Shown: piece after piece, positions 1-30,414 of the stretch
Layout: each line of letters opens with the position of its first letter
Numbering within the stretch: position 1 is the first letter of the stretch
Origin: a virus
UHGV virus genome: UHGV-0090440
DNA length: 64,000 bases
Direction: 5' to 3' (one strand)
The notes under the pieces: model-generated
What the model saw: only the letters and a program-made list of their open reading frames with translations
Database searches by the model: none
What the model was told of the DNA's origin: nothing
Program-made: the position numbers and the translations under genes

Positions 1-83
1 CGGCGGAAAAACCGGTATTTAACCGCACCGTTGGGCTGCGTGATACCTGGGCGAAGTTAGGTTAATAGGTATTTCGCCACATA

Positions 84-116
84 AAAAAGTAAACGCCGCT
101 ACTGCGGCGTTTTTTA
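84..116. terminator. rho-independent terminator hairpin 3' of dam
   Basis: Stem aaacgccgc/gcggcgttt (91-112) with tact loop, flanked by A-run and T-run, directly after the dam stop codon at 114-116. Confidence 0.6.
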
Positions 117-1019
117 CTTCATTATTGCAATTATATCGTTAGCAACTACACGTGTTGACGCCTTGCAGGAAACCGACCGTCTGGCTGCCATATGATGTAC
201 TTTAAACCCGTTTCCTTCATATAGTTCACGGATGCTTGGCGCACCACTATTTGTAATCACTACCTTAGCGCCGCGCTGGTGGGCTTCCACCAATAGAGAT
301 ACCAGCCGTTTCTGTTCGTCGAAACGGAAGCTATTTCCTGAATAACTGGTAAACCCTTCTGTATCCGGCAGCGGTTCATACGGCGGATCGCAAAAAATCA
401 CATCGCCTTCACCAGCCGCCTCGATGACGCCAGCAAAGTCACCTGATACAAAGGACGTGTTTTTGAGTACGTCATCAGCCAAAAATGCCTCCATCTCTGC
501 ATGTGGGAAGTAGGGCGCTTTGTATTTGCCATACCCCACGTTGAACTCGCCATTTTGGTTGTACCGCGTTACGCCATTAAAACAGTGCCGATTAAGGTAC
601 AAAAAGGCGGCAGCATGATGTAGCTGGTCATACTTTCCTCTGTTAAATGCCTCACGCACTTCGAGGTAACCGTCAGCGTTGTTGTAATTTTGGAAAAAAC
701 TATATGACAGCGTGACGAGCGAATGTCCTTCTCGCTGCAATGTCTGATAGAAGTTAATCAGGTCACCGTTAATATCATTAAGCAGGTTGTGGCGAAATCC
801 TGCATTCGTAAATACAGAACCGCCACCAACGAACGGTTCTATTAACCGCTTGCCGTGTGGTAGATGCTCAAGCACTGTAGGCAACTCTGAGAATTTACCG
901 CCTACCCATTTGAAGATCGGACGCTCATATTCATCCGGAGTCCGAATGGTGCGCATATAGCTAATTTCAGCCATCGTATCCTGTTTTTCTATGGCTATGC
1001 TTGCTATAGATTTACTCAT
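114..1019 (-). CDS. dam: DNA adenine methyltransferase (Dam family)
   Basis: Translation carries Dam hallmarks (FKWVGGK near the N-terminus, EPFVGGGSVF AdoMet motif, DPPY catalytic motif) and aligns along its length with E. coli Dam as I recall it. Start taken at ATG 1017-1019 (MSKSIAS), which overlaps the upstream gene's stop by 8 nt; the ORF-track N-terminal extension is discarded. Confidence 0.85.
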   Translation of the reverse strand: MSKSIASIAIEKQDTMAEISYMRTIRTPDEYERPIFKWVGGKFSELPTVLEHLPHGKRLIEPFVGGGSVFTNAGFRHNLLNDINGDLINFYQTLQREGHSLVTLSYSFFQNYNNADGYLEVREAFNRGKYDQLHHAAAFLYLNRHCFNGVTRYNQNGEFNVGYGKYKAPYFPHAEMEAFLADDVLKNTSFVSGDFAGVIEAAGEGDVIFCDPPYEPLPDTEGFTSYSGNSFRFDEQKRLVSLLVEAHQRGAKVVITNSGAPSIRELYEGNGFKVHHMAARRSVSCKASTRVVANDIIAIMK

Positions 1020-1764
1020 AGAGCACCCCCTTATTCGCTTCGAAAACTGCCTTTGCGAATCCATGTGGAGTAGCACTTCGAAAATTAGCCCTGTCAGGCC
1101 CTGGTGGCGCGGCATGGATTCTGTTATCTGGCTTGCCTAATGATTCGTCCATTAGGGCATCAGGCATGACAAAGCCCTGGCCGCTCCAGAGGCATGTTTT
1201 TTTGGTGTAGTTATCTTCCTGACAATATGCAGTGAAGAAGTAAGGGTGAAAGATGTGATCTGGCTTACGCCAGAATGTCGATATTTTGCTGACCGGATTT
1301 TCAATCATGTACGGACAACCGATCATCTTTGCAATGTCATAACACTGCCAGACAACCTGCATTGCTTTGAACTGGAAAACCGGATCTTTATTAGCCTTGT
1401 CCGAAAACCAGCGCGCGCCGGAAACAGCCAGGTCAGTACACGGTGGGAACCCGGCCAGAAACACGATGCGCTGCAAATTCTTACGGAGAAAAGCGTATAC
1501 TTCATCGCTATCGATGATCGCACTAATACGCGTCAGAACGGCACCTGATTGCATCCGCTCGTCACTGGTCGATAAGTGCTGTGGATCGACGATAGCGGCA
1601 TCGACACCGTATTCCAGCCAGGGGGCAACCATTGCCCCCGTAAAATCACACAGACTCACAACAAGCGGTCGGTTATTATCGTTCTGCTTCACCGCCAATA
1701 GCCTCCACCAGCGCGTTAAACAGTGCAGATAATTCGCCCGTAAAGAGCACGAAATCAGCATCAA
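1012..1764 (-). CDS. putative DNA (cytosine-5) methyltransferase, short form
   Basis: Motifs resembling C5-MTase motif I (VVSLCDFTGAM), motif IV (GFPPCTDLAVSG) and ENV motif VI (YMIENPVS). Stop is translationally coupled to the dam start. The start codon is uncertain because the 5' end overlaps the rdgC-like ORF. Confidence 0.5.
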   Translation of the reverse strand: MMLISCSLRANYLHCLTRWWRLLAVKQNDNNRPLVVSLCDFTGAMVAPWLEYGVDAAIVDPQHLSTSDERMQSGAVLTRISAIIDSDEVYAFLRKNLQRIVFLAGFPPCTDLAVSGARWFSDKANKDPVFQFKAMQVVWQCYDIAKMIGCPYMIENPVSKISTFWRKPDHIFHPYFFTAYCQEDNYTKKTCLWSGQGFVMPDALMDESLGKPDNRIHAAPPGPDRANFRSATPHGFAKAVFEANKGVLYE

Positions 1765-2581
1765 ATCGTTGTGCTACATCCTCCCGGTCGATATCGTCGT
1801 TCTGGTCATAGAGATCATCACAGAATGTCAGGGCTTTGATACTCATATCATCGTTGACTCTGAACGACGCGCGGTCCATCCAGTTAATTGCAACGGTCGT
1901 AGCTACTTTCCCCGCCTCAATGTGAGACATAATCTCGTCGGACTGTAGATCAACTTTGTTGCAGCGAACGGCACCACCATTATCGAGCAGACCCTTTAAT
2001 GTGGCGTCTTCACCTGCTGTAAATCCGGCAGGGAAGCTGTTTTTAAACCACTCGGTCATTGTAATTTCCAGCGGTTCGCGTGGTGTGAATGGAATGACAG
2101 GCAGGCTGCCGAGCGATTTTCGCAATAAAGCCAGCTGGTCCTCTGCCTTTTTGGCGCTGCTTGCCTCAACGAATACCAGATGGTTGCTGCGGTCGATCAG
2201 GATTTTTGCGAGTGATTTTCTCGTGAAAGCACGAGGAAGAAGAGAGTGAAGCACTTCATCCTTCAGCGAATCTTTTTCGGTCTTCTTCAGCTTTCTGTCT
2301 TGCTCTTCTTCAAGTTTCAGGATTTTTTTCTGTAACTCTTCTTTGAGTACTTGAGAAGGCAGGATTTTTTCCTCTCGTTTATGCTGCATCAGAAGAAAAC
2401 CCTGGTATTCATGGGTGAGGTTGTCGCCAAGAATTGGGGTCCAACCAGCTTTAGCCATATCCTGAGAACCGCATGGGGTAAACACAAACTTGCTAAGGGC
2501 TGCATTTACTACTGCGGTATCCCAGTTAACTTCGCGTGAAAGACGATAGATGAAGATATTTTTGAAAGCGACTGATCTCAT
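1676..2581 (-). CDS. rdgC: RdgC-like recombination-associated protein
   Basis: N-terminus MRSVAFKNIFIYRLSRE...FTPCGSQDMAKAGW resembles E. coli RdgC (MLWFKNLMVYRLSRE...FTPCGSQDMAK) from memory; length about 300 aa as in RdgC. Confidence 0.7.
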   Translation of the reverse strand: MRSVAFKNIFIYRLSREVNWDTAVVNAALSKFVFTPCGSQDMAKAGWTPILGDNLTHEYQGFLLMQHKREEKILPSQVLKEELQKKILKLEEEQDRKLKKTEKDSLKDEVLHSLLPRAFTRKSLAKILIDRSNHLVFVEASSAKKAEDQLALLRKSLGSLPVIPFTPREPLEITMTEWFKNSFPAGFTAGEDATLKGLLDNGGAVRCNKVDLQSDEIMSHIEAGKVATTVAINWMDRASFRVNDDMSIKALTFCDDLYDQNDDIDREDVAQRFDADFVLFTGELSALFNALVEAIGGEAER

Positions 2582-2592
2582 TTCTCACCATT

Positions 2593-2626
2593 TGTGTTAG
2601 AAAATATGCGTTAATTATCTAACACA
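2593..2626. promoter_or_regulatory. paired operator-like motifs (TGTGTTAGAAAAT ... ATCTAACACA) upstream of the rdgC-like gene
   Basis: Inverted pair of the dispersed TGTTAGAAA / TTTCTAACA motif, 10-40 nt upstream of the rdgC start on the minus strand. Confidence 0.45.
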
Positions 2627-2640
2627 AATGGGTGCATTTT

Positions 2641-3294
2641 CTATCCTTTCTTGAAATCGAAGTTGCCAGCAGTGGCCTGAAAGGTTCCCCCTGCCTTGAA
2701 AGCTATGTCCCCGTTAGCGGTGACAGCAATATTTTCCCCATTAACATTGATGTTGTTGGCTGATTTGACGTTAACACTCCCTCCTGCATTCACGATTACA
2801 TCAGCCGGACCAATGATATATATCTGCCCGGACTCATTCATGCCAATCCTTGAGCCTGCTGCCGTATTGGCAATTTCATAGCCGCCACCAGCAGTTCGTA
2901 CTTCAAGAATATTGTTGCGGTGAATAACGAAGTCTTTCGTTGCTGAGATTTGGGGGCGGGGAGGTGCTCCATCTACTTCCGGCGGCGTCCAGCCGCTACC
3001 ATTGCCTGACGCCTCCGGCGCGACGTTTGGAACTCCGCCAGGCGCATCCTGAGCCGCGCCAACTATCATTGGGCGTCTGGTGTCTATTCGACCGTTAACA
3101 TCTAAATAAGGAAACTCTACCCAGACCAGGTCACCTTTGACTGTAGGTACAAAAGCGTTCCCGATGGGTAACAGGTATTCCGCCCAGGGTAGATCGTCAT
3201 CAGGAACGCCATTCCAGTCAGGTAAAACACGGACTTGAGCACGCATAAGCCCTGCCGGGTGCACAGTTCCAACAATTTGCGCTCTACGCTTCAT
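2641..3294 (-). CDS. putative baseplate spike / gpV-like protein
   Basis: N-terminal OB-fold-like pattern (LPW...G..PTVKGDLVWVEF...G) typical of P2 gpV / Mu gp45-family spike proteins, followed by a Gly/Asn-rich repetitive C-terminus (NAGGSVNVKSANNINVNGENIAVTANGD). Confidence 0.4.
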   Translation of the reverse strand: MKRRAQIVGTVHPAGLMRAQVRVLPDWNGVPDDDLPWAEYLLPIGNAFVPTVKGDLVWVEFPYLDVNGRIDTRRPMIVGAAQDAPGGVPNVAPEASGNGSGWTPPEVDGAPPRPQISATKDFVIHRNNILEVRTAGGGYEIANTAAGSRIGMNESGQIYIIGPADVIVNAGGSVNVKSANNINVNGENIAVTANGDIAFKAGGTFQATAGNFDFKKG

Positions 3295-4271
3295 TTGTTA
3301 GGCACTCCCAATATCATTCGTGTTGTGTAGCCTACTCGGTCCTCAAAGTGCGCAACATTTTTTACTATCAGCTTACGGGGCATTGATTCATCAATGCGGT
3401 TTTCCTGGTCATAGCGGTATACGATAATCTCTATTACCATCCCCGGTTTTATATCAGGATTGCCTGCGACTTCTATATCCATTTTGGGGACGAGAGACAG
3501 CTGCATATTGCGAAGAGTTTCCATATCAGAGTCGGATATATAACGCACTGGGAGTGAGCTATCGCCATATTCGACGTAGCCATCGGTCATGGAATACCCA
3601 ACAAAACGATATTGATTCTTTGCTGTTGTCGCATGTTCCTGTTGGAGTAGGCGCATTTTGGACAAAGTGTATTCTGCTTTAGGGTTATTCCCCTCGTAGG
3701 TAAATGATGGCGTTTGCTTCATCAGATCAGCCAGGGTGTAAAAGTTAAATTCCCCCCGACATACCCAACACAATGCACCTTTGTCTCGCGCTATCTCCGA
3801 AAGCATTTTTGACGGTTTGTCACCAGCATTCAGATGATATGTAACTGCGCGTTTTAGCACGCTGCTGGTAATTTTAAGTTTGCCGGAATATGCCTTGAAT
3901 ATAGCGTCTGGTGTTTTGTTGGTATGTAAATTTGTGCGCGGGGAGGGGATCTTAAACCTGCGCACGTCTTCACTGACAGCAATAACGGTAACAACATCAC
4001 CAGCCAGCATTGCAGACGTAACAAAGAAATCTGTTTTAAAAGTGCCAGCATTACCGTTTGGATCGCCCATTTCAGCCACCAGCGATGCACCGTATTTGGC
4101 TTTCCAGTCATCAATTACGGTGCCGGTAGCGTCATGAATTTCCAGTTTTAGCAAAGGGGCTTTGAGGCAGGTTTTTTCTACATATACTGCGGTAAAAATC
4201 CAGTCTCGTGGCACTTTGTTATCGTTAATGAGCACTGACTGTAGAAAATATTGTTGTAACTCCTGGGCCAC
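3291..4271 (-). CDS. hypothetical protein (possible virion/baseplate module)
   Basis: 326-aa ORF, stop overlaps the start of the spike-like gene (translational coupling); no recognisable motif. Confidence 0.35.
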   Translation of the reverse strand: MAQELQQYFLQSVLINDNKVPRDWIFTAVYVEKTCLKAPLLKLEIHDATGTVIDDWKAKYGASLVAEMGDPNGNAGTFKTDFFVTSAMLAGDVVTVIAVSEDVRRFKIPSPRTNLHTNKTPDAIFKAYSGKLKITSSVLKRAVTYHLNAGDKPSKMLSEIARDKGALCWVCRGEFNFYTLADLMKQTPSFTYEGNNPKAEYTLSKMRLLQQEHATTAKNQYRFVGYSMTDGYVEYGDSSLPVRYISDSDMETLRNMQLSLVPKMDIEVAGNPDIKPGMVIEIIVYRYDQENRIDESMPRKLIVKNVAHFEDRVGYTTRMILGVPNK

Positions 4272-4274
4272 TTA

Positions 4275-5042
4275 TCACCCCATAGATATCGAGGTTTCGG
4301 TAATAATACGTTTTGCGTCCAACTCCCATGCTGTGATCACGTCTGCAATCACACTTATCGGCGCTTGTGTGGCATAAATACGCTCTTCTCCAATTGGTGC
4401 TGAAACATCCGTAAAGCCGACTTCTTTGGCATCCTGTATCGAGCAAATCAGCGGGACCGGGACACGAACAAGGTGAGTGGTTGCTTCAAATTGTGTACCT
4501 GTCATCAGGCGAAGCCGTGCGCCCAGCGAATTACACATCAGACTCATGGTCGCTTTATCAGTTGCCATTAACGTAACGTCATACGTCAGAATGGCCTGGG
4601 TGTATTCCAGTTCTGCTAAAGGCGTTCCGCTATCTGGTTCGCAAAAACTGGCTACTTTTTTGCGGTCAATCTGCTGATCATCGTTGATATAATTGATATC
4701 CATAGTGCGTGAGATATTGACCAGGGGGAGAGCATCCCGGTTAATGTTCTGGTTTTCAGGTTTTCTCCCTTGCCCGGCATTTGCGCGACGAACTGCTTTA
4801 AGAAACTCGATCGCATTGTCGAAACGGGCCATATAGACACGCTCTGCTGGTGGACGATTCAGGAATGACGCAAAGCGTTTTTCTTCCGGCGCGGGGGCCA
4901 CCAGTAAGATATCAGAAAAAATGTTGCTGATTAGCGTCGCAAACGCGTTATCCACGTTTTCAAAGCCCGTGGTCTGGAATTTTCCTGTGCGTAAGGTTTG
5001 CCATTCACCGGTTCGCGCCAGGAGGGTTTTATTTGACGTCAT
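4275..5042 (-). CDS. hypothetical protein
   Basis: 255-aa ORF in the same tightly packed minus-strand operon. Confidence 0.35.
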   Translation of the reverse strand: MTSNKTLLARTGEWQTLRTGKFQTTGFENVDNAFATLISNIFSDILLVAPAPEEKRFASFLNRPPAERVYMARFDNAIEFLKAVRRANAGQGRKPENQNINRDALPLVNISRTMDINYINDDQQIDRKKVASFCEPDSGTPLAELEYTQAILTYDVTLMATDKATMSLMCNSLGARLRLMTGTQFEATTHLVRVPVPLICSIQDAKEVGFTDVSAPIGEERIYATQAPISVIADVITAWELDAKRIITETSISMG

Positions 5043-5872
5043 TCGATCACTCCGTTTTGAGTCGTATCAAAATTCCTGGCAGGTATGCAGTAATAAAGCG
5101 AACCAACATGCTGTGTGCCGTAGCTAAAAATACGGTGCACGTACCACCAGCGGCGGGCTACGCCGTTTACCATCTCTTCATTCCATTCAAGAATTGAGCC
5201 GACGGGGACGTTATTTGCTGCAATACGCAGAATCAGAACATCATCGGTTAAGCCATCCTGCTCACCGTCTGCGTCAATTGCATGGAAAGAGTCACGCCCG
5301 TCAGGGTTATCCAGCACATAAACGATTTCAGGTTCCTGGTAAGTCAGTTCGCGTTGGTTGTTATCCAGTTCAGTGAATGACTCTTCTCCTGTTTCGTCGC
5401 TGACTACCCCATATGTGCCAACATCTGGTCGATATAAGAGAGCCTGAAACGCGTCTGGGCTGGATTCAATAATCAGCATCCAGTCTGCGCGGATTTGGTC
5501 ATTAAAGGCTTTATGCCCGTTATAGCGTGCTTTTAACTGTGGAGTCGGTTCTCTGCCAGCCAGGGAAGGTGGAAGTATGGCTATATCTGATTCGCCAGCG
5601 TCCGGAGTAAGGCCACCGTTGCTATCAGCAAAATTATCATGGCTATCAGCTTCGGCGGTGGATTGCTCTTCCAGAATGCTGAATGAATCCGGTCCGGCAT
5701 TGCCATGTTCCGGCGCGCTTCCTGCATCCGCTTCAACCGTCGCTGGCGTTTCTCTCTGCGTGCTGTCATGTTCTGACTCCTTACTTGCCAGGTTTGCATC
5801 GTCAGCAAACCATTCGTCAAAACGGCCCATAAGCATCCTCAAAGGTCGATTTATCAGGTATCGAGGGTGCAT
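5039..5872 (-). CDS. hypothetical protein with acidic low-complexity N-terminal half
   Basis: 277-aa ORF, first gene of the minus-strand block; D/E/S-rich N-terminal region. Confidence 0.3.
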   Translation of the reverse strand: MHPRYLINRPLRMLMGRFDEWFADDANLASKESEHDSTQRETPATVEADAGSAPEHGNAGPDSFSILEEQSTAEADSHDNFADSNGGLTPDAGESDIAILPPSLAGREPTPQLKARYNGHKAFNDQIRADWMLIIESSPDAFQALLYRPDVGTYGVVSDETGEESFTELDNNQRELTYQEPEIVYVLDNPDGRDSFHAIDADGEQDGLTDDVLILRIAANNVPVGSILEWNEEMVNGVARRWWYVHRIFSYGTQHVGSLYYCIPARNFDTTQNGVIE

Positions 5873-11943: not shown

Positions 11944-11987
11944 AGAAATACCCGGTTTGTCTACATAGCCGCTATGGTTGATCAAAC

Positions 11988-27549: not shown

Positions 27550-29050
27550 CCAGATCCGGCATTTCGATATCCGCCAGAACCTGATCTCGGAAAGTTGCCA
27601 TTTCGGCACCAATATCTTCATTAGCAGGCACATAGTCCACCAGCATAGTGAAGCAGTAGGTATCCCATCGGTCAGGCGATTTGATGTTTAGCTTTTGCCG
27701 CATGTGCTCTTTGCGCATCATCGCCATTTTCCCTTCTTCATTCATTAAAAAGGGGATTTTTGACGCTTGCTCTGCCGTTTTAGGGTCACTGTCTATCCGC
27801 ATACGCCCTGACTTTATGGCATCACGCGCCATGATATTTGCGTAGGCACGCTGATTAACAAATCGCTCCCTGTCTTTGTTCGCAAACATGGGTTTTCCCC
27901 ACCGAATACGTACCGGGTTCGCACCACGACGCACCAACTGCGCACACGTATCAGAACCAAAACCATCAGCATCAACCGCGATTGTTATATTCGGGTATTT
28001 TTCCGGCGTACATTCGTTATATATGAAGTCAGCAAAGGCCAATGGGTCCATAGTGCCAGGCATCTCCATTACCTTAAAGTTAACAACGCGCCGCTTATCC
28101 CTGTGACCTGATACCTTGCAGATGTTGAGGACCGACTTATCTCGCCCATTACCAACGTCAGCCGTTGCCACCCATCCCCAGTTTTTCTCCAACAACACCT
28201 TGCGGCGAGCAGAGCGATCGCATTCATCACGACCAAGCAAATAGCCGTTAATTTCTCGTGGGAACTGACCAAGCACCTTGACCATGTACTCAATAGAATC
28301 GCGCCCGCCATATTCCAGAAGCTTCTCCTTGATGAATTGTGGTGTGACGAACGGTGATTCTTCCGAGTTAAGAACAATTGCTGTCCAGATCCCTTTCGGG
28401 TTGTCTGGGGTTTTTGCTCGAGAATGGTGCGAATCGTAGAAATAACCACTTGGCCTTGTTGGCTGGGATAGCATCAACATCCGGTTATCTTCTTCAGTAA
28501 GAGCACCGGTCATTACGCCGATCGCCTTATCAGATATACCAGATGCTTCATCCAGAATTAGAAGCAAATGTGCCGCGTGTTCCCCCGCCAGCGCTTCTTC
28601 GTTGCCGAGTCGATAACCTTTGCAGAGAACTTCCCAAATCCCCTTACGGGAGCGCTCATAAAACATGGTGTCAGAGAGGACAAAATAGGTCTGCAACCAC
28701 CCATGACGCTTAACTGCATTCGCCCAATACTGTTTAACGTATTTGAATACGCCTGTTTTTACCTGGCCTATCTTGTTAGCAACAATGATGACACGGGCAT
28801 CGGGGAACAGGATCATAAAAATCAACAGCAACATCGCGGTAAGGGACGACTTCCCCGTTCCGTGTCCGGACGTGACGGTAGTCCTACTCCCCGTTTCCTG
28901 TACGGACTGAATGATCTGCTGCTGCTGCGGGGAGGGGAACATCCCAAAAATATCGACAACAGCCTGGGTAAAGTTGTAGCGGTATTTGATTACCATATCG
29001 CGCCAGCGTGGATCTCTGGTGACGCATTTAACCTTGCGCCCGCCAGCCAT
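27542..29050 (-). CDS. pacB: terminase large subunit (PacB-like)
   Basis: 502 aa; Walker A-like TSGHGTGKSS and Walker B-like LLLILDEASG in the N-terminal ATPase half; sits directly downstream of a PacA-like gene with start/stop overlap. Confidence 0.7.
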   Translation of the reverse strand: MAGGRKVKCVTRDPRWRDMVIKYRYNFTQAVVDIFGMFPSPQQQQIIQSVQETGSRTTVTSGHGTGKSSLTAMLLLIFMILFPDARVIIVANKIGQVKTGVFKYVKQYWANAVKRHGWLQTYFVLSDTMFYERSRKGIWEVLCKGYRLGNEEALAGEHAAHLLLILDEASGISDKAIGVMTGALTEEDNRMLMLSQPTRPSGYFYDSHHSRAKTPDNPKGIWTAIVLNSEESPFVTPQFIKEKLLEYGGRDSIEYMVKVLGQFPREINGYLLGRDECDRSARRKVLLEKNWGWVATADVGNGRDKSVLNICKVSGHRDKRRVVNFKVMEMPGTMDPLAFADFIYNECTPEKYPNITIAVDADGFGSDTCAQLVRRGANPVRIRWGKPMFANKDRERFVNQRAYANIMARDAIKSGRMRIDSDPKTAEQASKIPFLMNEEGKMAMMRKEHMRQKLNIKSPDRWDTYCFTMLVDYVPANEDIGAEMATFRDQVLADIEMPDLDI

Positions 29051-30414
29051 TAATCATCCTCCGGCGGTTCTATCGCGATATCATCATCTCCGGCGTCATA
29101 CCCTGCATCAGATGCATCATAATCACCGTAAATTTCAGCCGTTGCCGAAGGGTCAATATCCAGCTCTTCGTCGTTGGCCTCGAATTCTCCAGCTTTACGC
29201 TCGCCATTGCGGTCATAATCTCCGCACCCCAATTCTTCAACAATGGTTGCCACATCCGCCCGGCGCTCTGCCAGCCATTGCGGATGGTTAGCCTGAAGCG
29301 TTGCAAACTCCCTTGCCTCTTTGTCCAGCTGTTCATCATCAACATCATTGACGTCAGAAACAGGTGGTTCGAGAAGAGTGATAGCTTTCGCCGCGCGCGC
29401 CGCGAGGATAGCCGGGACGCTGACCCCCTGGCGCTCGATGTATTCAGCAACACCGATATCATCCAGTTCCTCGCGCTCACGCATACGTATAGCGGCGGCG
29501 ATAACTCTGGCTGCGCGTGCGTCAGCGCCAATGCGATATTCAATCTCTTTGCCACGCTGTTCGGCCTGTAGGCGTGCTAATTCGAGTTTTTCTCTGGCCT
29601 CAGCCTCTTTGAATGCTTGCTGGCGAGCGCTCTGACGAAGCTTTTCATCCCCCTGTCGCAGCTTTTGTTCGGACTGATATATAGCTGCCAACCTACTGAT
29701 AAAATCATTCATGTAGTAGGCCGCGTCACTGATTAGACCGAGAAGGCGCTGCCCAGGGTGCATTCCTTCTGGCTCTTTATCGCCCAAGGTGTCTATTTCC
29801 GCCTGTAGACGTTCGGCCTCCTGATCAACAATGCTTTGATACTGAAGTGCGCGCTCTTGCGCCATTTGAATTGCTAACCGCAGGTGTTCTTCTGCGCCGT
29901 TCTTCATCATATCGCGAGCAACATTCGTAGTTGGCAATGTGGCACGCTGCACAGCACCGTCAGGGATCATTGCAGAAGATCCCTCAATTTTTGGGGCGCT
30001 TTTATCTTCTTCGGGGATCATTTTCGCCATTTTTTCGCGCAATGATCTCCTGACGGATTCTTTTATCTCATTGTTATTATTTGAATTATTTTCATGATCC
30101 GAAGTTTTCTTTCTCGGCATACTTCGGAAAGAACCTGCGCCCTGCGAATTGTCAATTTCTGTAAATTTTGTTTTTTCTGCACCCTCTTCCTGCTTTTTTG
30201 TTGCTCTTCCTGCCCGTTTTTTTTCAGGTGATTTGGTGCTTTTTTTTGTTGTCTTTACCTGCGACCGCACCTCATTTTTTTTCATATTGAGATGCTTTCT
30301 GGCTGTATTGAAGCTAAGGCCATGCTCCTCACAGTATTCCTTTACAGTGATCCCTTTTTCTTCACGCAACGCTATAAAGCGGGCGCGGTGCTCCTCCCAA
30401 TTAACCAGACTCAT
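29050..30414 (-). CDS. pacA: terminase small / pac-recognition subunit (PacA-like)
   Basis: N-terminal HTH-like region (ITVKEYCEEHGLSFNTARKHL), then a long charged region; positioned upstream of pacB as in P1. Confidence 0.55.
   Translation of the reverse strand: MSLVNWEEHRARFIALREEKGITVKEYCEEHGLSFNTARKHLNMKKNEVRSQVKTTKKSTKSPEKKRAGRATKKQEEGAEKTKFTEIDNSQGAGSFRSMPRKKTSDHENNSNNNNEIKESVRRSLREKMAKMIPEEDKSAPKIEGSSAMIPDGAVQRATLPTTNVARDMMKNGAEEHLRLAIQMAQERALQYQSIVDQEAERLQAEIDTLGDKEPEGMHPGQRLLGLISDAAYYMNDFISRLAAIYQSEQKLRQGDEKLRQSARQQAFKEAEAREKLELARLQAEQRGKEIEYRIGADARAARVIAAAIRMREREELDDIGVAEYIERQGVSVPAILAARAAKAITLLEPPVSDVNDVDDEQLDKEAREFATLQANHPQWLAERRADVATIVEELGCGDYDRNGERKAGEFEANDEELDIDPSATAEIYGDYDASDAGYDAGDDDIAIEPPEDD
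29964..30099. other. candidate pac site (GATC-hexamer cluster inside pacA)
   Basis: Five GATC sites within 136 bp (29964, 29978, 30016, 30044, 30096) embedded in TGATC/GGATC hexamers inside pacA. Confidence 0.3.

Follow-up and report, generated by a model that had tools for sequence, protein, structure and literature searches.

The 64,000-nucleotide stretch of viral DNA analysed here (virus genome UHGV-0090440; "the window") contains three minus-strand ORFs that tile positions 114–2581 and encode an RdgC/HrdC homologue, a small cytosine-C5-methyltransferase-like protein and a Dam methylase (Table 1). We consider it likely that together they are the operon with which a phage-D6-like (P1-family) plasmid prophage modifies DNA, corresponding to the Odmt/Pdmt–uhr–hrdC–dmt operon of phage P1. 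The operon is real but ordinary, having been annotated before in phage D6, and finding it again matters little. What is new is the allele polymorphism at the rdgC–dam slot, where two unrelated cytosine-C5 methylase solutions alternate at a precisely bounded locus within one phage-plasmid lineage.

Table 1. Features of the rdgC–methylase–dam region (window coordinates).
Feature	Coordinates	Strand	Description
Intrinsic-terminator-like hairpin, bidirectional	91..112	both	9-bp stem, 6 GC pairs, T-runs on each strand
dam	114..1019	-	301 aa; Dam-family methyltransferase, putatively GATC N6-adenine-specific; DPPY motif
Exchangeable cassette	945..1675	-	blastn breakpoints vs L012 and L013
ATGAGTAA, start/stop overlap of small methylase gene and dam	1012..1019	-	8 nt; from the sequence
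Small orphan cytosine-C5 DNA methyltransferase-like gene	1012..1692	-	226 aa, GTG start; phrog_757 / phage K42 "Dcm" family
Overlap of rdgC 3′ end and GTG start of small methylase gene	1676..1692	-	17 nt; from the sequence
rdgC/hrdC homologue	1676..2581	-	301 aa; recombination-associated protein RdgC family; PF04381, NF001462, P1 HrdC, D6_65 annotation
Regulatory region upstream of rdgC	2589..2643	-	sigma-70-like promoter and inverted pair of operator-like sites

Organization of the operon

The first-pass annotation described a closely packed operon of three overlapping genes, with the dam start overlapping the preceding stop by 8 nt, and the ORF listing and the sequence bear out both statements: all three ORFs lie on the same strand, and the dam ATG (1019–1017) and the middle gene's TAA (1014–1012) fall within the string tATGagTAA, with AAGGGGG located 6 nt upstream of the ATG. 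The middle gene also overlaps rdgC, as had been proposed, but the extent of that overlap depends on the start codon: it would be 89 nt from TTG 1764 (a 250-aa product), whereas it is 17 nt from GTG 1692 (226 aa), which is most likely the true start. GTG 1692 is favoured by a GGAGG 9 nt upstream, by the N-termini of homologues, which begin 6–10 residues ahead of the LCDxTG motif, by the D6 annotation, which places the start at the same codon, and by the sequence GTG-AAG-CAG-AAC, which is also used as a start by the fused allele in sibling plasmids (L013, see below) and is conserved in the distant relative L007. The description of the protein as unusually short at 250 aa does not hold: 250 aa would require translation from the upstream TTG, probably not the true start, and a short length is normal for the family (179–305 aa, mostly 212–258 aa, among the best 120 homologues listed). 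For dam, an alternative start may lie at ATG 974.

Each of the two overlapped starts has its own Shine-Dalgarno sequence, and the three genes are probably translationally coupled through the overlaps. Phage operons commonly contain start/stop overlaps such as these, which taken alone are statistically unremarkable.

The outer two genes encode readily recognized proteins. The RdgC homologue matches PF04381 in the Pfam scan (E = 2.6e-102; 342.6 bits against a cutoff of 25; residues 6–298 of 301 covered) and NF001462 in the NCBIfam scan (382.7 bits against a cutoff of 330), and it is 52% identical to P1 HrdC over its full length. By homology, it is probably a duplex-DNA-binding protein that keeps RecA in check on phage DNA. 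The Dam protein matches PF02086 (E = 1.7e-56, Pfam) and TIGR00571 (247.3 bits against a curated cutoff of 114.85, NCBIfam), contains the sequence FCDPPYEP with its DPPY catalytic motif, and is 69% identical to residues 478–753 of P1 Dmt. From that identity to the P1 Dam domain we infer GATC specificity: the enzyme would methylate GATC as in P1, where GATC methylation controls pac cleavage. No pac site resembling that of P1, with its 7 hexamers, emerged from a GATC scan of the window; the scan found only a cluster of 5 sites, located in the pacA homologue.

Relationship to phages P1 and D6

In the uhr–hrdC–dmt operon of P1, as in the window, the RdgC homologue lies immediately upstream of, and overlaps, the methylase gene; a phage-borne RdgC, which had been singled out as notable, is therefore already familiar from P1. 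The P1 operon also has a C1 operator, Odmt, over the promoter Pdmt, and the window has an analogous paired operator-like site; it has no uhr. The two operons also differ in their methylases: P1 encodes a canonical PF00145 C5 domain fused to Dam in a single 754-aa protein, whereas the window encodes an unrelated 226-aa protein plus a stand-alone Dam. That the two are separate genes rather than one fused enzyme holds up, as their ORFs lie in two different frames with a stop at 1012–1014, but the claim that they occur in the opposite order from P1 does not: P1 Dmt has a PF00145 match starting at residues 8–135, with PF02086 over residues 493–725, so that the C5 domain is N-terminal and Dam C-terminal, the same order as in the window.

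Positions 1–2995 of the window are 98.8% identical in nucleotide sequence to Escherichia phage D6 (GenBank MF356679; Gilcrease and Casjens 2018) and identity to numerous E. coli and Salmonella plasmids reaches 99.8%, some plasmids, such as NZ_CP020051 (99.8%), being closer than D6 itself. The boundaries of D6 orf65, orf64 and orf63 are identical to those in the window, and only about 1% sequence divergence separates the two sets. The D6 record describes orf65 as RdgC family (similar to P1 hrdC), orf64 as a putative DNA-cytosine methylase and orf63 as a DNA-adenine methylase similar only to the C-terminal half of P1 dmt, which removes the novelty that the first-pass annotation had implied for separate methylase genes. 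The paper on a D6-like Salmonella plasmid does not mention these genes.

Two more distant relatives (contigs of 85–88 kb, with 64–75% amino-acid identity) keep separate genes in the same arrangement, with the small methylase and dam genes overlapping by 4 nt (L007) or 19 nt (L005) where the window has 8 nt. For these relatives dN is about 0.2 and dS is saturated, so that no dN/dS ratio is computable; the values are consistent with purifying selection in a qualitative sense only.

The small methylase

Whether given as 226 or 250 aa, the middle protein matches no Pfam family at E ≤ 1, PF00145 included, and no NCBIfam model, and searches of PDB sequences with the single sequence and with a 52-sequence profile returned chance-level matches only (BH2621, ornithine decarboxylase; E about 0.4–1). 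It does match the phrog_757 profile (E = 2.9e-78), and 1580 phage records match it by tblastn, defining a large family of fairly uniform short length. Most members lack an adjacent Dam, for example those in nin regions and in Drexlerviridae.

In structural comparison, the protein has a class-I SAM-methyltransferase fold of the C5-methylase type, and its top Foldseek match is a chain of a DNMT3A2–DNMT3L octamer entry. The catalytic domains of DNMT3A and DNMT3B are the best structural match yet share only 9–10% sequence identity with it, and as these are eukaryotic, multi-domain enzymes that act as oligomers, the match implies no evolutionary closeness. The segments F82-P83-P84-C85-T86 (motif IV) and E131-N132-P133 (motif VI) are invariant in 52 aligned members, as are the acidic D36 at the end of strand 2 and an RSxTP motif. 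In motif I, the loop that follows strand 1 is D16-F17-T18-G19-A20-M21 (family consensus LCDxTGxM), with one conserved glycine compared with FxGxG. The stretch from the TCLW strand to the RSATP motif, where canonical enzymes have a target-recognition domain, is only about 35 residues long (172–205).

A functional counterpart comes from the same family. The "Dcm-like C5 cytosine methyltransferase" of phage K42/KarlJaspers (Bas06), a reported trigger of retron Ec86, is 37% identical to the small methylase (bas06_0055; BLASTP E = 2e-41; 236 vs 226 aa). According to a preprint, the K42 enzyme formed 5mC and not 5cxmC, as judged by LC-MS upon over-expression with msDNA as the substrate, and a C82A/E128A/K175A/K176A mutant did not trigger the retron. 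C85 and E131 of the small methylase align with C82 and E128, and the small methylase retains all four of the mutated active-site residues (the catalytic Cys, the Glu of ENP and the two lysines of the KK pair). The 226-aa protein may form 5mC as well, the only functional evidence being that reported in the preprint for this 37%-identical homologue. Two differences bear on how far the comparison extends: K42, a virulent Drexlerviridae phage, carries its gene alone, uncoupled to rdgC or dam, unlike the window gene, and the K42 protein differs in the region that follows the KK motif and precedes the C-terminal motif, so its target specificity may differ.

The earlier description of the middle protein as cytosine-C5-methyltransferase-like is upheld by its fold, by its PPC and ENP catalytic motifs and by the 5mC activity reported for a homologue. 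By homology, it probably acts as an orphan cytosine-C5 DNA methyltransferase that depends on SAM and has a minimal catalytic core resembling that of DNMT3; it would mark phage DNA against restriction. Its assignment also links a widespread D6-type plasmid gene to a family of which one member reportedly triggers retron Ec86, from which we predict that D6-like elements could be sensed by Ec86.

We regard as very unlikely that the protein is instead an inactive or regulatory methylase-like subunit (DNMT3L-like) that modulates Dam or another enzyme and does not itself modify DNA. The short segment in place of a target-recognition domain, the failure of PF00145, a top Foldseek match within an octamer that includes DNMT3L and the tight coupling to dam would all fit such a role, but the invariance of the catalytic cysteine, ENP, D36 and RSxTP, the family members without a neighbouring Dam, and the activity and mutant phenotype of the K42 homologue all argue for an active enzyme. 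Slightly less probable still is an enzyme that transfers a non-methyl group (for example, carboxymethyl from Cx-SAM) or that acts on RNA or single-stranded DNA rather than on duplex phage DNA. E. coli CmoA does supply Cx-SAM, and an R-S pair at the equivalent position is also present in SAM-using DNMT3 enzymes. That pair, in what are also the best structural matches, argues against the non-methyl reading, as do the absence of a nearby cmoA or ligase gene among the window ORFs and in the D6 annotation and the LC-MS result for the K42 homologue.

Split and fused alleles at the rdgC–dam slot

D6-like plasmids are polymorphic at this locus: about 97 carry the split allele seen in the window, and about 21 carry a fused, P1-type Dmt. 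The breakpoints are sharp by blastn, with positions 1–944 and 1676–2700 of the window homologous to two fused-allele plasmids (L012 and L013) and the middle not. In the fused-allele plasmids, 945–1675 is replaced by 1.3–1.4 kb encoding a P1-type C5 methylase domain in frame with Dam, and the resulting L012 and L013 proteins (691 and 762 aa) match both PF00145 and PF02086; the L013 protein shares 85% overall identity with P1 Dmt and is almost the same as it across the C5 part. Both alleles, split and fused, share one GTG start codon, inside the 3′ end of rdgC. The surroundings are also the same: in pE2863-2 (NZ_AP018804) and NZ_CP066033, for example, a PF00145 domain fused to Dam replaces the small separate gene within the context found in the window (glnS, D6-type dam, D6-type rdgC, baseplate gene).

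These alignments show that the small gene occupies the slot held by the fused P1-type C5 domain in sibling D6-like plasmids. We also considered whether the small gene could be the split-off C5 domain of P1 Dmt and rejected that origin, because the small methylase has no similarity to the N-terminal C5 domain of P1 Dmt by BLASTP and an hhalign probability of 0.2%. Sequence comparison shows that it does not derive from P1 Dmt and places it in a very divergent C5-methylase family unrelated to that protein; its closest non-D6 relatives are located in nin regions of lambdoid prophages.

It is almost inconceivable that the two methylase ORFs reflect a sequencing frameshift in, or the pseudogenised decay of, what was one fused P1-like dmt gene: P1 and some D6-like plasmids do carry a fused C5::Dam gene at the equivalent position, and in a tail-versus-linker alignment the N-terminal tail of the window Dam, some 25 residues long, resembles the linker joining the two domains of fused Dmt alleles, but the small protein has no similarity to the P1 domain, ends where stand-alone homologues end and keeps all its catalytic motifs invariant, and the distant relatives keep two genes with different junction sequences. 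The high identity to D6 and to many independently sequenced plasmids excludes a sequencing frameshift at the junction, and the arrangement shared by D6, about 97 plasmids and the two distant relatives makes the split a genuine one.

One speculation, to which we assign a small but not negligible chance, is that the rdgC–dam slot serves as a swappable cytosine-modification cassette, with the small enzyme and the fused P1-type domain exchanged under opposing pressures from restriction, against which methylation protects, and from methylation-sensing defences such as retron Ec86, and that the small enzyme, with next to no target-recognition domain, might form a physical complex with the co-translated Dam. 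Such a complex is suggested by Rosetta-stone logic, given that a fused allele exists and that the linker tail is kept, and would make the small enzyme the non-covalent equivalent of the fused Dmt.

Putative promoter, operator-like sites and terminator

Upstream of rdgC lies a sigma-70-like promoter (TAGAAA, 18 nt, GATAAT; 2643..2614) that scores 9 of 12 matches in the promoter scan, a score not above chance on its own. It is accompanied by an inverted pair of 16-bp operator-like sites, one at 2614–2629 on the minus strand, covering the -10 element, and the other at 2590–2605 on the plus strand. The motif ATTTGTGTTAGAWAAT occurs 9 times in the window compared with 1.42 expected (0 of 100 shuffles reach 9), and a looser search gave 12 matches, none of them within an ORF of 150 aa or longer. 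Taken by itself, the 12-bp inverted repeat does not reach significance (2 matches; 7 of 100 shuffles reach 2), so the longer 16-bp motif is required. The P1 C1 operator consensus has no match in the window at up to 3 mismatches, and the operator sequence thus differs from that of P1. The motif is a candidate operator for the D6 immunity repressor: by analogy with P1, the promoter under the paired site is probably kept silent by a C1-type prophage repressor that would bind there.

No terminator was found between the upstream baseplate genes and the operon, which may therefore also receive late read-through transcription. A transcript would extend through rdgC, the small C5 methylase gene and dam and then stop at the hairpin terminator, which begins 2 nt past the dam stop and lies at the end of the convergent glnS gene as well.

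Organization of the operon and comparison with P1

The operon consists of three minus-strand ORFs that tile window 114-2581 (see table). Over window 1-2995 the sequence shares 98.8% identity with Escherichia phage D6, a P1-related plasmid prophage (MF356679), whose record describes the corresponding genes as orf65 ("RdgC family, similar to P1 hrdC"), orf64 ("putative DNA-cytosine methylase") and orf63 ([quoted passage not shown]). The operon is real, yet it had been annotated earlier in D6. The operon itself is of low significance; the modest additions made here are a cassette polymorphism, a link of the D6-type small gene to the reported trigger family of retron Ec86, and a candidate operator motif. 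In a plasmid collection, 121 plasmids matched (from E. coli, Salmonella, Shigella and Enterobacter), 97 of them covering at least 80% of the query with identity up to 99.8%. The close match to D6 and these 97 plasmids excludes a sequencing frameshift at the junction, and the two methylases are separate genes, as the first-pass annotation had proposed; it is unlikely that their ORFs reflect a frameshift or a pseudogene.

The reported overlap of the dam start with the stop of the middle gene was also confirmed: the dam ATG (1019) and the TAA (1012) form ATGAGTAA, with AAGGGGG upstream. The middle protein, in contrast, had been given 250 aa from a TTG at 1764, and four lines of evidence favor the GTG at 1692, from which the gene overlaps rdgC by 17 nt: a GGAGG sequence precedes this GTG by 9 nt, homologues start shortly ahead of a conserved LCDxTG motif, the D6 annotation uses the same start, and an identical GTG-AAG-CAG-AAC start is kept in a 75%-identity relative and, in sibling plasmids, serves another gene. 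The three genes are presumably translationally coupled; the Dam protein would methylate GATC, and the RdgC protein would modulate RecA.

Features of the operon and of related sites (window coordinates)
Feature	Position	Strand	Evidence or remark
glnS 3′ end	1-65		D6 orf62, plasmid-prophage-encoded glutaminyl-tRNA synthetase; convergent with dam
Hairpin terminator	91-112		Starts 2 nt past dam stop; bidirectional, common to glnS and dam
Dam-family N6-adenine methyltransferase, 301 aa	1019..114	-	PF02086 E 1.7e-56; TIGR00571 247 bits vs cutoff 115; DPPY motif
Middle ORF, 226 aa	1692 (GTG) to 1012 (TAA)	-	PHROG 757 "DNA methyltransferase" E 2.9e-78
RdgC-family protein, 301 aa	2581..1676	-	PF04381 E 2.6e-102; NF001462 382.7 bits vs cutoff 330
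Sigma-70-like promoter	2643..2614		By itself not significant
Copies of 16-bp motif (looser set)	2590-2605, 2614-2629, 9414, 10445, 11984, 12008, 25032, 26444, 30877, 37370, 38412, 47487		Outside ORFs of at least 150 aa (12/12)
GATC cluster	29965-30096		Five sites within 136 bp
pacA (terminase, phrog_1711) homologue	29050-30414	-	Contains GATC cluster

In P1, the gene order is Odmt (a C1 operator), Pdmt, uhr, hrdC, dmt. P1 Dmt (754 aa) carries its PF00145 C5-methylase match N-terminally (best stretch residues 8-135) and PF02086 Dam at 493-725; both phages therefore place the cytosine enzyme ahead of Dam, and the order is not opposite as first described. The window Dam aligns with P1 Dmt residues 478-753 at 69% identity. 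With the window RdgC 52% identical to P1 HrdC, a phage-borne RdgC, which had been singled out, is not new either, and the earlier comparison with P1 is partly wrong.

The small methylase family

Pfam and NCBIfam profile scans of the middle ORF gave no match. The possibility that it is a Dmt fragment was rejected, since neither BLASTP nor hhalign found any similarity to the P1 C5 domain. Its family is very large: 7915 of 8000 candidates scored are homologues at E <= 1e-5, and tblastn matches 1580 phage records. The 120 best homologues are 179-305 aa long, mostly 212-258 aa, and among the matches listed they had no Pfam domain, bar one call of 305 aa that matches RdgC. That protein (P0004, PF04381) comes from a 1-kb contig and appears to be an rdgC-methylase read-through call. 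The short length and divergent motif I noted at first pass are both present but are traits of the family rather than of this locus. Invariant in 52 aligned members are FPPCT (motif IV Pro-Cys), ENP (motif VI), DxYxKxT, RSxTPxGF and the acidic D36 after strand 2.

A 711-bp dcm gene of phage K42, a phage 95.4% identical to KarlJaspers Bas06, is reported to be the trigger of retron Ec86 and to yield 5mC in msDNA by LC-MS; an inactive C82A/E128A/K175A/K176A mutant served as control (preprint, bioRxiv 10.1101/2023.08.16.553469). KarlJaspers bas06_0055 is 711 bp long, carries exactly these four residues, and is 37% identical to the window's small protein (E 2e-41), where they align with C85, E131, K164 and K165. 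This homology and the aligned catalytic residues support the original cytosine-methyltransferase-like reading. The small protein belongs to this family and has a C5-methylase fold, and we infer that it forms 5mC; with these residues in place it is unlikely to be an inactive regulatory subunit, and transfer of a non-methyl group, with 5mC the product reported for K42 dcm, is likewise improbable.

The nearest non-D6 relatives (59-60% identity) lie in prophage-like gene neighbourhoods. In two Cronobacter prophages (L016 and L017, 3564-5257), the closest of these homologues sit between ninB and ninE/ninF in the lambdoid nin region, a classic site for orphan methylases. Because no adjacent gene there has a recognised nuclease domain, these relatives look like orphan methylases.

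In more distant relatives, on 85-88 kb contigs, rdgC, the small gene and dam are kept separate, with junctions that overlap by 19 and 4 nt; dN is ~0.2 with dS saturated and the ratio not computable, consistent with purifying selection. In one of them (L005, Logan SRR15244401 contig, 2939-5559), the small methylase has 69% amino-acid identity to the window's, versus 47% for RdgC and 45% for Dam, which suggests that the middle gene is under stronger constraint or was transferred more recently. In the other (L007, 3941-4621), gene callers pick an ATG after the LCDxTG motif, and a GTG inside rdgC is the more likely start.

Split and fused alleles

Some D6-like plasmids match the query at its two ends only. 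NZ_AP018804 and NZ_CP066033 share the glnS, rdgC and baseplate context of the window, and their slot holds a single gene of 762 and 691 aa, respectively, with both PF00145 and PF02086; the C5 part of this fused allele is nearly identical to P1 Dmt and the Dam part is D6-type. Because homology to the window covers 1-944 and 1676-2700, the swapped segment is 945-1675, with the rdgC stop codon and the Dam linker as its borders, and the window Dam has an N-terminal tail that aligns with the linker of the fused allele. Within the D6 context, the plasmid collection contains ~97 records with the split allele and 21 with the fused one, indicating an allele polymorphism of this cassette in D6-like plasmids.

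The two fused genes (315-2390 in NZ_CP066033, 315-2603 in NZ_AP018804) diverge from each other in the variable middle of the C5 domain, the probable location of its target-recognition part. As annotated, the 691-aa allele lacks motif I and follows rdgC after a 64-nt gap, which may mean a damaged N-terminus or a miscalled start.

Candidate regulatory sites

The sigma-70-like promoter is flanked by an inverted pair of a 16-bp motif, ATTTGTGTTAGAWAAT. This motif (ATTTGTGTTAGAAAAT) has 9 hits in the window versus 1.4 expected, a number attained in 0 of 100 shuffles, and a second inverted pair lies at 11984/12008. The set mirrors the dispersed C1 operators and Odmt site of P1; the window has no match to the P1 C1 operator consensus itself, and the two examined stretches of the D6 record show no feature of the motif's type. 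The motif is probably the operator set of a D6-type C1 repressor, a candidate that would place the operon under repressor control. Late read-through from the upstream baseplate gene into the operon is also possible, since no terminator-like site was found between that gene and rdgC.

The GATC cluster, with borderline statistical support, is reminiscent of the Dam-regulated pac site that P1 carries within pacA, with fewer sites than P1's seven hexamers.
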